Shown piece after piece: positions 19,071-24,459 of a DNA stretch of 64,000 bases (position 1 is its first letter; each line of letters begins with the position of its first letter). Position numbers and translations under genes: made by a program. The notes under the pieces were generated by a model. That model worked only from the letters and a program-made list of their open reading frames with translations, was not told the DNA's origin and ran no database searches. The DNA is from an uncultured Chthonomonadaceae bacterium (GTDB lineage: Bacteria; Armatimonadota; Chthonomonadetes; Chthonomonadales; Chthonomonadaceae). The stretch lies in assembly GCA_963817895.1 (NCBI GenBank), contig CAWFQB010000005.1, positions 288,001 through 352,000 on the forward strand, written 5' to 3'.

Positions 19071-22000
19071 ATGAACATTACCAAAGTACGCGATTATTTG
19101 CAGGCGTTTGATTTCAAGCTGCTGTTTTTAAATGAAATCGGTTGGGATCAACGCAAACAGAGTCTTTCCGTTGAAGCGGGCAAGCAAACGTTTATGCTCG
19201 AAGCCGTTGCCGAAAAGAAGGGCATGGTGGCCTTTGTCTGCGCGCCCGGATAAGGACGGCTTTATTCCGCTTCAGGCCACGCGGCGCAAAATCGAGCATC
19301 TGGTCGCGCAAAGCGTCCGCGAGCATATCATCATCTACACGGACGCGAAACAGTCGGCGCAGGTGTGGCAGTGGGTGCGCCGTGAAAAGGGCAAGCCCGT
19401 CGTGGCGCGGGAAATGCCGTTTTACGCCGGGACAGTTCGGGCGATCTGCTGATCCAGAAATTGCGGGCATCACAGTGGAGATGGAGGACGAGGACGAGCT
19501 GACGCTGGTCGTTCAGACCGGGCGCGTGCGGCAGGCGTTCGATGTCGAGGGCGTAACGCAAACGGTTTTATGACCGCTTCAAGACGGAACACGCCCGCTT
19601 CCTGACGGCCATTGCAGCCCGACCTCCCTGCCGGATGCCGACCGGACATGGTACACGTCGGTGATGCTGAACCGCCTGATGTTCCTGTACTTCATTCAGA
19701 AAAAGGGCTTTCTGGCGGGCGATGACAAACTATCTGCGGAACCGCCTCAAAACGGTACAGGCGCAGCACGGCAGCGACAAGTTCTTCACCTTTTATCGCC
19801 ATTTCCTGATGCGCCTGTTTCATGAGGGATTGGGCCAGCCGACGCACAGCCCGGAACTGAGTGCGCTGATCGGCAAGGTTCCCTACCTGAACGGCGGCCT
19901 GTTCGCCGAACACGCTATCGAGCGCAAATGCCGCGAGCAGAACATCGAAATTCAGATTGAGGATGCCGCCTTCGAGCGCGTGTTCGACGTTCTTCGATGA
20001 CTTCGACTGGCATCTGGACAATCGCCCCAACAAGGCGGGCAACGAGATCAACCCGGACGTGCTGGGCTATATCTTTGAGAAGTACATCAACTACAACGAG
20101 GCGGGGCAGAAAGAGAACGGCGCGTACTACACCAAAGAGGACATCACCGAGTACATTTCGCGCAGCACGATTCTGCCATATCTGCTGGACACGGCGCGGG
20201 ACAAGTGCCGTGTCGCATTTGAGGACGAGGGTTCGGTCTGGCGGTTGCTGCGCGACAACCCGGACAAATATATTTTCGCGGCTGTCAAGCACGGCATGGA
20301 CAACTGCCGCTTCCGCCCGAAATCGAGGCCGGAATCGCGGACGTGAGCAAGCGCGACGGCTGGAACAAACCCGCGCCGAGCGGCGAAGACGCCATCGCCC
20401 TGCCGACGGAAATCTGGCGCGAAGTCGTGGCGCGGCGGCAGCGGTGTGAGGAACTGCGAAAGAAACTGGCGGCCGGGGGAGATGGAATCGGTCAACGACC
20501 TGATTACCTACAATCTCGACATACGGCAGTTCGTGGCGGATATCATCGCCGGAGTACGAGGGCGCAGATTTGATACAGGCGCTGTGGCGGGCCATCAAAA
20601 ACGTCCGCGTTCTCGATCCGACGGTGGGCAGCGGCGCGTTTTTGTTCGCCGCGCTCAACATTCTGGAACCCCTGTACGAGCAGTGCCTGGAACGCATGGA
20701 AACGTTTGTAGGGGATGTAGATCGCGCCGGGGGCGCGCAACATGGACACCGAAACACCGGGCGTTTCGGGAGGAACTGGCGCACGTCAACGCGCCCGAAC
20801 ATCCGAACCGCGCCTATTTCATCTTCAAATCCATCATCGTCAACAACCTTTTCGGCGTGGACATCATGGAGGAGGCGACGGAAATCTGCAAGCTGCGCCT
20901 GTTCCTGAAACTGGTCGCGCAGGTGGAACCGGATATGTCGAAAGCCAACATGGGCGTGGAACCCCTGCCCGATGTAGATTTCAACGTTCGGGCTGGTAAT
21001 ACTCTCGTTGGCTATGTCAACAAGGAGGATATGGATCGCCTGTGGGCTGCGACAGGCCAACTACCCTACGACCGCGACCCCGAACTCAAGCAAAAGGTAC
21101 GCGAGTACAGCCTGCTGCTGGCCGATTTTCGTAAACAGCAATTGGGCCTGCCAACCCCCAAATCGGTTACGAAAGAGCAGGTAGAACGCGCCGCCCGCAT
21201 TATCCGCGAGGGTGAATACTCGAACCGACCGGGCAACGCGAAGACCAATCCGAGCCTGAACAACGACCTGTGGAACCTGTACAAGACATCAGGCAAACTC
21301 GCAATGAACGTGCCGCAGGACAAATTCAACGACACGCATACGCCCCTGCACTGGTTCGTAGAATTTCCCGAAGTCATGGCCGCAGGCGGCTTCGACGTAA
21401 TCATCGGCAACCCGCCCTACGTCGAGTACAGCAAAGTACGGAACGACTATACCATTTTAGGCTTTCAGTCTCTTGATTCCGGCAATTTGTATGCGTATGT
21501 TATCGAAAAATGCTTAAAGGTACAAAAAATCGGAGGGCGAATTGGAATGATTATCCAACTATCCGCATTTTGCACCCCTCGCATGATCTCATTTCAAGAT
21601 GTTTGGTTTGCTCAGGTTCAAACCTCACACTTGTCATTTTTTGATGATCGTCCCGGTAAACTCTTCGATGGGCTTGAACATATTCGCGTTGCCATCACAA
21701 TTGGACAACGGGGAAGCAAAAGCGATTTTGTCGCAACTACACAGTACACCAAGTTTGCGACAGAGGCTCGTCCAACATTATTCGACTCCTTGCACCTGCA
21801 ACATAATCTCTATCCCCGGCATGGAAGCAGCGTTCTGAAAGTGTCCGCAAAAGAAGAAAATAGCATAATCCGCAAGATGTGGGGAGTTGGGGCAACGTTG
21901 TCAAATTACCTTCAAGAAGGCGAGAACGACAATTTTGTATACTATGGATACGGCTATGGCTACTGGGGCAAAATTCTCAACTACAAGTCGTATTTCAAGG

Positions 22001-22449
22001 GAGAAAAAGTGTCTGTCTCAACGGGAGATAAGTACATCTATGGCAAACCCGACGTAGACAGGGATGTGATTGCGGCTGTCATGAACTCCTCGTTGTTCTA
22101 CTGGTTTTAAATCAATTATAGTGATGGACACAACTTCACGAAGCACGTCATTGGTTCAATGCCGTTTGTGTACCCAAACGAAGACGTGCTGTGTCAGTTA
22201 AAGTCCGTCTGTTCGTTGTTGATGAGTGACCTCCAAAAGAACGCCCGTCGTAAAACTGCCAACTATAAGGCAACGGGACAAGTCATCTATGATGAGTTCG
22301 TACCTAAGCATAGTAAATCGATCATTGACAAGATAGACCGGGTGCTGGCGAAGCATTACGGGTTTACGGACGCGGAACTCGATTTCATCCTGAATTACGA
22401 CATCAAGTATCGCATGGGGCGTGGGGGCGAGGACGGGGCGGACGGGTGA
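19071..22449 (+). pseudogene. Eco57I/type IIG-like N6-adenine DNA methyltransferase with C-terminal target-recognition region; multiple frameshifts plus an in-frame TAA at 22108-22110
   Basis: VPYLNGGLF, INPDVLGYIFEKYIN, GAYYTKEDIT, VLDPTVGSGAFL (motif I), GGFDVIIGNPPY (motif IV) and C-terminal IDKIDRVLAKHYGFT..ELDFI.NYDIKYRMG. Confidence 0.88.
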
Positions 22450-22463
22450 GCGGGGGAACGGGG

Positions 22464-22701
22464 GTTTCTACCCTCATCCGGCCTCCGGCCACCTTCTCCC
22501 TGCAAGGGAGAAGGCAAATGTGGAAGTCTGGTGGGTTATGTTGGGGATGGGAGAGTGTAATAGTTTTGAGTGCGGGGCGTTTGTTTGGGGAATGTGGAAG
22601 TCTTGCGCTTGTAAGAAAGGTATTATTAACGCACCCAACTACCACATTAGCCTTCTCCCTTGCAGGGAGAAGGTGGCCGGAGGCCGGATGAGGGTAGAAA
22701 C
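22464..22701. repeat. Inverted pair of 52-bp REP-like palindromic units (REPIN-like), left of DUF559
   Basis: GTTTCTACCCTCATCCGGCCTCCGGCCACCTTCTCCCTGCAAGGGAGAAGGC at 22464-22515 and its exact reverse complement at 22650-22701. Confidence 0.92.
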
Positions 22702-22804
22702 TCCCAATCGCGAGACAACTTCCAGCATCCCTCTCCAGTTCCAAACACGCGCAGGGTAGAGGCTTCCAGTTACGAGACAACCCTCTGCCGGGAAAGACAA
22801 CCTC

Positions 22805-23194
22805 ATGCCCGACGAGAAACGCCTGCGCATCCAGCCACAACTCACCGAACGCGCCCGCCAGTTCCGCAGGCCCCTCACGCCCATGGAAACCCGTCTGTGG
22901 ACACATCTGCGCGACCGTAAATGCGACGGATACAAATTCCGCCGTCAGGTGGTACTCGACAAATATATCGCGGATTTCTACTGCGCGTCCGCCCGCCTGC
23001 TCGTGGAAGTGGACGGCAGCTCGCACAACGGCACGGTCGAGCGCGACACCGCCCGTGACGAATGGCTCGCCCTGCGCGGCCACCACACCCTGCGCGTCAC
23101 CAATACCGACGTGCGCGACAACCTCCCCGTCGTCCTTACCCTCATCGCCCAAACCTGCGCCCATCTGGAACCGACCCCCGCCGCGCAACCATAA
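22805..23194 (+). CDS. DUF559 / Vsr-like endonuclease domain protein
   Basis: ARQFRR..TPME..LW..LR, YKFRRQ, YIADFYC, LLVEVDGSSH, DTARDEWL and LRVTN.DV. Confidence 0.92.
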   Translation: MPDEKRLRIQPQLTERARQFRRPLTPMETRLWTHLRDRKCDGYKFRRQVVLDKYIADFYCASARLLVEVDGSSHNGTVERDTARDEWLALRGHHTLRVTNTDVRDNLPVVLTLIAQTCAHLEPTPAAQP

Positions 23195-23197
23195 GCC

Positions 23198-23390
23198 TCT
23201 ACCCTCATCCGGCCTTCGGCCACCTTCTCCCTGCAAGGGAGAAGGCCAAACTGTTAAATGCGCGGTTAAACAGAAACCGGGCAAAAATGAAAAATCCTAC
23301 GCCTGAACTAACCCCACATCCAACCCACCAGACTCCCAATTTAGCCTTCTCCCTTGCAGGGAGAAGGTGGCCCCCGACGGATGAGGGTAG
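23198..23390. repeat. Second inverted pair of the same REP-like unit, right of DUF559
   Basis: Forward copy 23198-23246 and a slightly degenerate reverse copy 23344-23390. Confidence 0.9.
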
Positions 23391-23685
23391 CCCCCTCCAA
23401 TTTCCAAAAAACTTCTTGGAGATACTTCTAAAATCCCGGTCGAATGTAAATATACCAGGATTGCCAGAACAGAATACCGTCCCCACAAACAAGGAAGGGA
23501 GGTGAAGCCGATGCCTGTCCACATCGGCGCGCCTTAACACTTTCGAGGTCACGACGCCTCTACCTAAAAACTTGACACAATGAGACCGAGTGCTGGAAGC
23601 GCTGCATTGCCACTATTTCGACAACGTCTCTACATATTTCTCCCTTTTAGCCAACGCCCTGCTGGAGAAAGCAGATCGGCAACTG

Positions 23686-24459
23686 TCACCGAAAGCCATT
23701 TGCCAGCGAGCCGATAACCAGCGTCCAGCCATTCGCGAGGACAAACAATAGCAGCTTGGCGGGCAGGCTGAACGTGGTGGGCGGAACCATCATCATGCCC
23801 ATGCTCATCAGGGTACTCGCGATCACCATGTCTATCACCAGAAACGGCAGATAGATGTAGAATCCGATGATGAACGCGGTTTTCAGTTCGCTGCTAATGA
23901 ACGCGGGAATTACGGTCATAATGCTGATGTCGTCCACTGTGTTGGGGCGCGGCGCATGGGACAGCTTCAGGAAGAACGTCATGTCACTGGTGTACGTTTG
24001 CCGCAGCATGAACCCGCGCAAAGGCTTTTCCGCTTTGTCCAGCGCGACCGGCAGCGTGATTTTGTTGGCGAAGTAGGGCTGCAAAGCATCGTCGTTGATT
24101 TTGCCCAGTGTCGGCTGCATCACGAAAAACGTCAGGAACAGCGACAGTCCGACCACAATCTGATTCGGCGGAATCTGCGGCGTTCCAAGCGCGGAGCGCA
24201 GGATAGAAAACACGATGATGATGCGCGTAAACGCCGTCGTCATAATCAGAATGGACGGGGCCAGCGTCAAAATCGTCATCATCATCAGGATTTGCAGCGT
24301 GACCGCGACATCCTTCGGGTTCTGCGACGTGCCGACACCGAGTTGAATTTTGGGCATCGCCATGTTCTGCGCATACGCCTGCGTCAGCGAGGCGAACAGG
24401 CAAAACAGAATTGCAAAGCACAGCGCCAACAGTTTCGATTTAGAAAGTTTCGTTTTCAA
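23686..24459 (-). CDS. fliP: Flagellar export pore protein FliP
   Basis: LAPSILIMTTAFTRIIIV, PPNQI, PAFISSELKTAF and MGMMMVPP. Confidence 0.97.
   Translation of the reverse strand: MKTKLSKSKLLALCFAILFCLFASLTQAYAQNMAMPKIQLGVGTSQNPKDVAVTLQILMMMTILTLAPSILIMTTAFTRIIIVFSILRSALGTPQIPPNQIVVGLSLFLTFFVMQPTLGKINDDALQPYFANKITLPVALDKAEKPLRGFMLRQTYTSDMTFFLKLSHAPRPNTVDDISIMTVIPAFISSELKTAFIIGFYIYLPFLVIDMVIASTLMSMGMMMVPPTTFSLPAKLLLFVLANGWTLVIGSLANGFR

Follow-up and report, generated by a model that had tools for sequence, protein, structure and literature searches.

Among the genes of an uncultured Chthonomonadaceae bacterium, a small predicted nuclease gene of the DUF559 family lies between inverted pairs of a dispersed repeat that has the layout of a three-stranded DNA fold. 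Gene and repeat are found together in many other bacteria as well, E. coli among them, which makes it likely that the enzyme makes cuts at these repeats and helps them spread. The explanation toward which we lean is that the DUF559 nuclease recognizes the folded repeat and nicks beside it, and that repair then spreads the repeats and at times moves the DNA enclosed between them. Repeats of this class (BoxC/PIT/TM) are described from more than 260 bacterial genomes and are tied to local instability, with no known origin or partner given in the available part of that report (PMC4666352). DUF559, for its part, is a common domain of unknown function that is present in E. coli K-12 as ycjD, and the link merges both puzzles into one assay, feasible in a laboratory strain. 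The repeat class is already known, as is the kind of system (RAYT/REPIN, Ssn/SRM); what is new, within the literature covered, is the pairing of such repeats with a Vsr-fold DUF559 nuclease. Our search of mostly open-access literature returned no paper tying DUF559 or ycjD to triplex or palindromic repeats; the supplementary list of TM-flanking genes of PMC4666352 may name ycjD.

The window, by which we mean the whole 64,000-nucleotide stretch of DNA that was analyzed, contains at 22467-23390 four units of ~50 bp arranged in the order > < gene > < around an intact DUF559 gene, just as the sequence-only reading had described. The features of this cassette are the following.

22467..22518, - strand: repeat unit 1, a member of subfamily A that is predicted to form a class II intrastrand triplex at 22471-22514, with arms in the order (- strand) pyrimidine arm, 5-nt loop, purine arm, 12-nt linker (mini-hairpin), mirror (third) arm
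22519..22646, no strand: spacer of doublet 1; 136 nt from hairpin core to hairpin core (genome-wide mode 102)
22647..22698, + strand: repeat unit 2, inverted relative to unit 1; predicted triplex at 22651-22694
22747..22784, + strand: decayed fragment that matches the outer end of unit 2 at 63% over 38 nt and, in inverted orientation, the outer end of unit 3
22805..23194, + strand: DUF559 gene, 129 aa; Vsr/I-Bth0305I-like predicted fold, with the predicted active-site residues E28, D57, D70, H74, and D81 conserved
23198..23249, - strand: repeat unit 3, beginning 4 nt past the stop codon; predicted triplex at 23202-23245
23250..23340, no strand: spacer of doublet 2; 99 nt from hairpin core to hairpin core
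23341..23390, + strand: repeat unit 4, whose linker is a variant of 11 nt and whose predicted triplex spans 23345-23387
23396..23650, + strand: adjoining "tail" repeat with a ribosome-binding site, an 8-codon ORF, and a stem-forming 3' part

The hairpin CCTTCTCCC-N5-GGGAGAAGG is present in all four units and the GGCC-N3-GGCC mini-hairpin in three, the linker of unit 4 being a variant; both features had been proposed earlier and both hold. Unit 1 shares 96% identity with unit 3 (52 nt) and is 92% complementary to unit 2 (79 nt). Within the spacer of doublet 1, semi-conserved arm extensions border each unit. The outer units had been read as ~80-bp terminal inverted repeats of a 930-bp element because of ~30 bp of extra similarity, but the same extension is found on the inner unit 2 and on doublets that enclose no gene, and it therefore marks ordinary doublet arms. 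The cassette has no element-specific terminal inverted repeats of the kind that mark an insertion sequence, composite transposon, or MITE. In agreement with the earlier reading, there is no transposase inside the cassette, and no target-site duplication is visible at either of this genome's two cassettes. The partial copy between doublet 1 and the gene is likely the leftover of an earlier unit. An Rfam scan of 22300-23700 identified no family, only chance miRNA-shaped matches from the long inverted repeat. Upstream, the cassette is bordered by the end of an Eco57I-like methylase region and downstream by a convergent fliP. The methylase region (19132-22449) is itself fragmented: several short ORFs occupy 19132-20449, and a stop codon interrupts the frame at 22108-22110. 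It represents either a pseudogene or a sequence error.

The "tail" repeat abuts the cassette and may or may not be part of it. Its core (23490-23650) belongs to a family with 47-48 copies in this genome, at 74-93% identity, and many in the relatives G001 and G002. A strong ribosome-binding site precedes an ORF of exactly 8 codons in all 42 copies that have the site; TAA and TGA stops interchange, and the stem-forming 3' part shows some compensatory changes. Five copies directly adjoin subfamily A units, and 12 of 47 have a triplex motif no more than 700 bp away; the family has no Rfam match. We consider it a candidate leader-peptide or structured RNA element.

The repeat of the cassette has the BoxC/PIT/TM-type class II triplex layout and is dispersed genome-wide. 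On one strand, the third arm mirrors the purine arm: a G faces each G, and each A faces either A or T. A detector that requires 9 triads in this layout and tolerates one mismatch finds 341 motifs in the 7.5-Mb genome, as compared with 5 when the genome is reversed and 0 when it is shuffled locally, which places the dispersed family far beyond chance; all four units of the cassette have 9/9 triads with no mismatch. The units are thus BoxC/PIT-type triplex motifs instead of the REP-type units first proposed. The 341 motifs fall into subfamilies A (44), B (125), C (54), and a long-loop group (114), with 4 unassigned. A relaxed search raises subfamily A to 45 units, which form 20 inverted pairs (40 units) and 5 singles; the spacer measures 99-112 nt in 17 of the 20 pairs, the cores are 93% alike, and, of the 44 motifs from the stricter detector, 38 lie outside crude ORFs. 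The second linker of subfamily A, 11-12 nt with a mini-hairpin, falls outside the short-loop definition (1-6 nt, TTA or CCG), to which subfamily B mostly conforms, TTA and CCG being its commonest second loops.

Several observations bear on whether subfamily A adopts the fold, which from its layout is predicted to be a triplex. The mini-hairpin linker shows compensatory change, with GGCC/GGCC in 27 copies and GGGC/GCCC in 11. At free positions, with the first five triads used as the anchor, the third arm has A or T in 28 of the 35 cells that face an A, and G in 34 of the 53 that face a G, across 22 distinct types; this is modest support for the triad rule because the types are related rather than independent and include decayed copies. 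ViennaRNA folds the unit into two hairpins only. The repeats beside the closest DUF559 homologs have loops of 22-24 nt, to which a perfect-stem hairpin finder (loop up to 12) is blind. For the E. coli motif, the accessible sections of the source report a triplex in vitro and no stable triplex detected in vivo (PMC4666352).

Doublets also bracket genes unrelated to DUF559, namely ankyrin, WD-like, and NACHT-HEAT genes. At G000:C6:373823-375992, three doublets of subfamily A are interspersed with two ankyrin-repeat genes, and the near identity of the last two doublets points to a tandem duplication with repeats at its ends. At two further places (L131:1560-1800 and G000:C14:652730-653000), a sequence resembling the 3' half of a tRNA, with an intron-like interruption, sits beside a repeat doublet. 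This interrupted form would be comparable to the group I introns in tRNA-Leu; ARAGORN called no gene on L131.

The 129-aa product of the enclosed gene scores 114 bits with the Pfam profile PF04480 (DUF559), whose cut-off is 20.6. Apart from DUF559 it has only a sub-threshold match to MTES_1575, with no match to PF03852 (canonical Vsr), and profile and structure comparisons show no GIY-YIG (cd10448) domain. Its AlphaFold model (mean pLDDT 79) matches in Foldseek NGO0050 (3HRL; E 4e-8) and the catalytic domain of I-Bth0305I (3e-5), with Vsr a weaker match (prob 0.97). I-Bth0305I itself, a homing endonuclease, is larger and binds DNA through a separate domain. The protein is 40% identical to E. 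coli YcjD and 35% to 3HRL. Among 38 of the 42 homologs found, four fragments or fusions being left out, E28, D57, E68, D70, and D81 are invariant and H74 is at least 90% conserved, and the spacing of E28-D57-D70-H74 equals that of the predicted active site of Caulobacter VsrA, E73-D102-D115-H119, as given in the available text (PMC12907096). On the strength of the model and these residues, the protein is likely a metal-dependent nuclease of the Vsr-like PD-(D/E)XK type. The genome's two DUF559 copies are 83% identical (dN/dS 0.175, dS 0.63), and the gene is under purifying selection. Set against the dS of 0.63 between the copies, the 93% similarity of the repeat cores makes it likely that renewal of the repeats outpaces divergence of the gene. 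Pro-rich C-terminal tails (for example NPGPSP) occur in several homologs (P0005, P0006, P0008, P0015, P0016, and P0018); in P0005, this tail is the flanking repeat read in frame.

The Vsr-like fold and active site would also suit a role in very-short-patch repair, in which DUF559 nicks T:G mismatches as Vsr does and its closeness to repeats is incidental or arises from mismatches in imperfect hairpins. Caulobacter VsrA, a DUF559 protein, provides the only genetic data we have seen on such a protein: according to the sections available, it damages DNA in the absence of a cytosine methyltransferase and, as a hypothesis of mismatch repair, has been suggested to be a very-short-patch enzyme, with no in vitro activity reported (PMC12907096). 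We judge this role very unlikely here, as it predicts no physical linkage to repeats, the protein lacks a PF03852 match, and a separate canonical Vsr gene exists elsewhere in the genome, 11 kb from any motif. A nuclease that cuts at folded repeats, our preferred reading, would, if true, offer an alternative interpretation of the DNA damage by VsrA.

This genome encodes two strong DUF559 genes and one weak match within a longer frame. The four-unit layout is complete at both strong genes, and the weak match lies 2.2 kb from the nearest motif. In other genomes, the strict detector places a motif within 400 bp of 45 of 78 DUF559 genes: 19 of 28 in the order (12 of them on both sides), 15 of 28 in the phylum, and 11 of 22 in other phyla. 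A relaxed detector with an 8-triad option raises these counts, at the same distance, to 20/28, 20/28, and 16/22, respectively. The order set comprises the 30 of 43 matches that had a locus, minus this genome's own two, and the phylum set comprises the best-scoring 30 loci minus two duplicates. Eight of ten DUF559 loci from a plasmid collection, picked for taxonomic spread from 43 records with their flanks unseen beforehand, have a motif as well, and a Shinella DUF559 gene from this collection has a doublet with the purine and third arms of subfamily A. Motif density falls away with distance from the gene, from 54 in 22.8 kb near to 3 in 40.2 kb far in the order set (own loci included), from 42 in 21.5 kb to 1 in 40.4 kb in the phylum, and from 15 in 17.1 kb to 3 in 49.2 kb in other phyla.

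As a control, we scanned 30 loci of Uma2 from the same relatives, nine of them, which had no tblastn placement, over their whole length, and found a motif anywhere in none (0/30). Within this genome, 459 of 6522 crude ORFs (7.0%) have a motif within 400 bp and 17 (0.26%) have one on both sides; this ORF set holds an overlapping antisense ORF in place of the window's DUF559 gene. Because kin are not independent, the linkage counts overstate the statistical strength. The enrichment of repeats beside DUF559 genes across phyla, which the sequence-only reading had named as a check, is nonetheless strong.

The same control bears on whether the repeats owe their spread to a different enzyme (RAYT, IS200/IS605, Ssn, or IS110), with the DUF559 linkage a by-product of shared variable regions. 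The genome does contain three Y1_Tnp (RAYT-like) genes and three GIY-YIG matches, but the former are 1.8, 6.2, and 16 kb away from any motif and the latter 7-23 kb, and Uma2, which belongs to the same variable gene pool, is never accompanied by a motif. A RAYT as mobilizer in this genome is accordingly largely refuted, a REP-associated transposase does not explain the repeats, and we regard the involvement of any such other enzyme as barely plausible. Two of the Y1_Tnp genes (G000:C5:223662-224000 and C2:68237-68578) bear inverted palindromes of their own and are likely ordinary RAYT loci with separate repeat families.

Whole-genome counts point to the association of the repeats with DUF559 as well. 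In a set of 151 genomes from the phylum, we called repeat-rich those in which a single triplex pattern is matched 20 times or more, overlapping matches entering the count twice. This holds for 37 of the 69 genomes with a strong DUF559 match and for 9 of the 82 without one, although related genomes are not independent. The trend persists in three size classes and in 10 of the 12 families having both states. A strong DUF559 match is absent from 9 of the 46 repeat-rich genomes, and 32 of the 69 DUF559-positive genomes are poor in the single pattern searched. For five repeat-rich genomes, one with ~550 pattern matches, an alignment search run without a positive control gave no match to DUF559. Two genomes, G021 and G132 (97% complete), have ~550 and 230 triplex-pattern matches, respectively, and no DUF559 was found in them; they may have another partner or may have lost DUF559 recently.

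The pairing is looser at the level of subfamilies. Both cassettes here are flanked by subfamily A only, and no DUF559 gene adjoins the larger subfamilies (125, 114, and 54 motifs) in this 81%-complete genome. Co-variation of repeat and protein, a further check that had been suggested, is not one-to-one: DUF559 proteins that are 79-83% identical adjoin three different repeat subfamilies, and any recognition would therefore have to be of the fold and the shared purine core rather than of one sequence. In a tree of 81 DUF559 rows, the label "motif nearby" is clustered and not confined to one clade (18 changes, against 25.8 when shuffled); many of the rows labeled "none" carry 8-triad versions, so we draw no claim of co-evolution.

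The pairing extends to E. coli K-12, in which a TM repeat lies ~170 bp from the 3' end of ycjD, and the allele with TM and ycjD is present in 3346 of 5426 E. coli genomes. The alternative allele carries eefRABCD, according to the available text (PMC12817139), and in the one strain of this allele examined, the motif and ycjD are both absent. Comparison of L069:3164-3821 with L196 shows a 658-bp block of TM and ycjD in place of the 7.9-kb eefRABCD operon of other lineages.

Among close relatives, all Chthonomonadaceae, cassette loci differ, and DUF559 is patchy (22 of 41 genomes). All seven genes of the clade that includes the window's DUF559 (support 99/91) are motif-flanked, each with different neighboring genes. 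The genome's second cassette splits an hsdM-hsdS operon on the opposite strand; its hsdS side has no counterpart in 5 relatives. Relatives share fliP with the window and have other genes downstream, so there is no clean empty allele for the window's cassette. Of 54 repeat loci in G001 and G002, 6 were without a central motif and 29 without a two-sided match, leaving 19 sites with two-sided synteny; this genome has no motif at 11 of these (5 near-empty) and a motif at 8, of which two have a different subfamily at the same place. Such presence and absence, together with subfamily swaps at orthologous sites, indicates that units appear or disappear at a site and that one can replace another there. 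The 5 near-empty sites, whose flanks are only ~80% identical, show no target-site duplication or sharp insertion boundary.

At the site of the G002 cassette, this genome retains the outer units, with a "tail" repeat in place of DUF559. Such a site would be expected if the repeats served merely as a landing pad, spreading and decaying through host replication slippage and recombination, with DUF559 a hitchhiker akin to a homing endonuclease that inserts at repeats or becomes trapped between them and makes none. The closest characterized fold is indeed that of the homing endonuclease I-Bth0305I, repeat-rich genomes without DUF559 exist, doublets bracket other genes too, and TM instability is ascribed to replication and repair in the accessible part of that study (PMC4666352). 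This account, however, leaves unexplained why repeat-rich genomes so often carry DUF559, why doublet spacing is fixed at ~102 nt, and why Uma2, a similarly small accessory gene, is never caught between repeats, and we consider it unlikely.

A domesticated role like that of Ssn deserves mention alongside, in which DUF559 cuts repeat-bearing single-stranded DNA, restricting or steering the recombination of incoming DNA, and the spread of repeats is a side effect. The architecture resembles NTS-ssnA-NTS, for which the available text reports cleavage near the hairpin and an effect on transformation as demonstrated (PMC11893778); the gene is under purifying selection; and in the genus, restriction-modification genes adjoin the cassettes in 3 of 4 cases, the G002 site being the exception. 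The gene is not kept at one locus within the genus, however, and its shifting position and patchiness fit a mobile element better than a fixed host function. We hold this role to be improbable, although its biochemistry overlaps with that of the explanation we favor.

That favored explanation would proceed in four steps. The DUF559 protein would bind the folded purine strand while the DNA is transiently single-stranded; it would nick beside the folded repeat; repair of such nicks from another copy would seed or overwrite repeat units; and two units would now and then mobilize the DNA that they enclose, the nuclease gene included. We infer the formation of the triplex by subfamily A, the binding and cutting by DUF559, and the copying step.

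Proteins of the same family or fold have been described, although not in this setting. YcjD, NGO0050 (3HRL), Caulobacter VsrA, and I-Bth0305I (3R3P) share the predicted active site, and no link to flanking repeats is reported for them in the available text (PMC12907096). On the side of the repeats, the comparison begins with BoxC/PIT/TM, with which the units here share the class II arm order, an intergenic location, inverted pairs, and presence or absence among relatives, insofar as these are set out in the accessible sections (PMC4666352). The commonest second loops of subfamily B, TTA and CCG, resemble those of TM types A and B, whereas subfamily A differs in its 11-12-nt mini-hairpin linker and in being nearly always paired (40/45), again relative to the accessible description (PMC4666352). 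In those same sections, Holder et al. 2015 report no link of TM to mobile elements and name no partner protein, and the word "nuclease" is absent from the main text (PMC4666352).

The unit also matches dispersed intergenic DNA in 241 plasmid-collection records, mostly from Rhizobium, Sinorhizobium, and Shinella. These matches may correspond to the named CIR/RIME families, and Chen and Shapiro 2003 reportedly mention ORFs flanked by CIR/RIME repeats, in which case the link would be partly in print. Alphaproteobacterial CIR/RIME are described in the available text as dispersed intergenic repeats (PMC2229807), and the unit here is likewise dispersed.

The sequence-only reading had likened the locus to a RAYT/REPIN element. 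The inverted doublets at fixed spacing bear out this likeness; the protein family, the tag, and the type of unit do not. REP units carry a tag, GTAG or CGTC, on the 5' side of the hairpin. The units here have no tag 5' of the hairpin; of the subfamilies, A alone has GTAG, which there lies 3' of the third arm. The gene between the repeats is DUF559 rather than an HUH Y1 transposase, and the genome's RAYT-like genes have other palindromes. Common to both systems, as far as the accessible account of REPtrons extends, are the inverted doublets that bracket the gene and the many gene-less doublets of fixed spacing (PMC3733652).

A likeness in organization is also seen to Ssn and its NTS/SRM repeats, in which a small single-domain nuclease gene is likewise flanked by its own dispersed hairpin repeat, at similar linkage rates (71% any, 42% both sides) in the available text of Chenal et al. 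2025 (PMC11893778). Unlike Ssn, which is a GIY-YIG enzyme, the protein here is a PD-(D/E)XK, Vsr-like one, and the repeat differs from those of Ssn in being a three-arm polypurine motif (PMC11893778, from the sections available). That available text mentions neither DUF559, Vsr, BoxC, nor triplex (PMC11893778). Overall, it is possible, though less likely than not, that DUF559/YcjD proteins are widespread nucleases that read a three-stranded fold rather than any fixed sequence and are the missing mobilizer of BoxC/PIT/TM and likely CIR/RIME-type repeats, overwriting repeats in place and moving enclosed genes. If so, they would be a rare natural structure-specific reader of triplex DNA, a possible single-stranded DNA tool, as Ssn is, and a third class of repeat-nuclease system beside RAYT/REP and Ssn/SRM.
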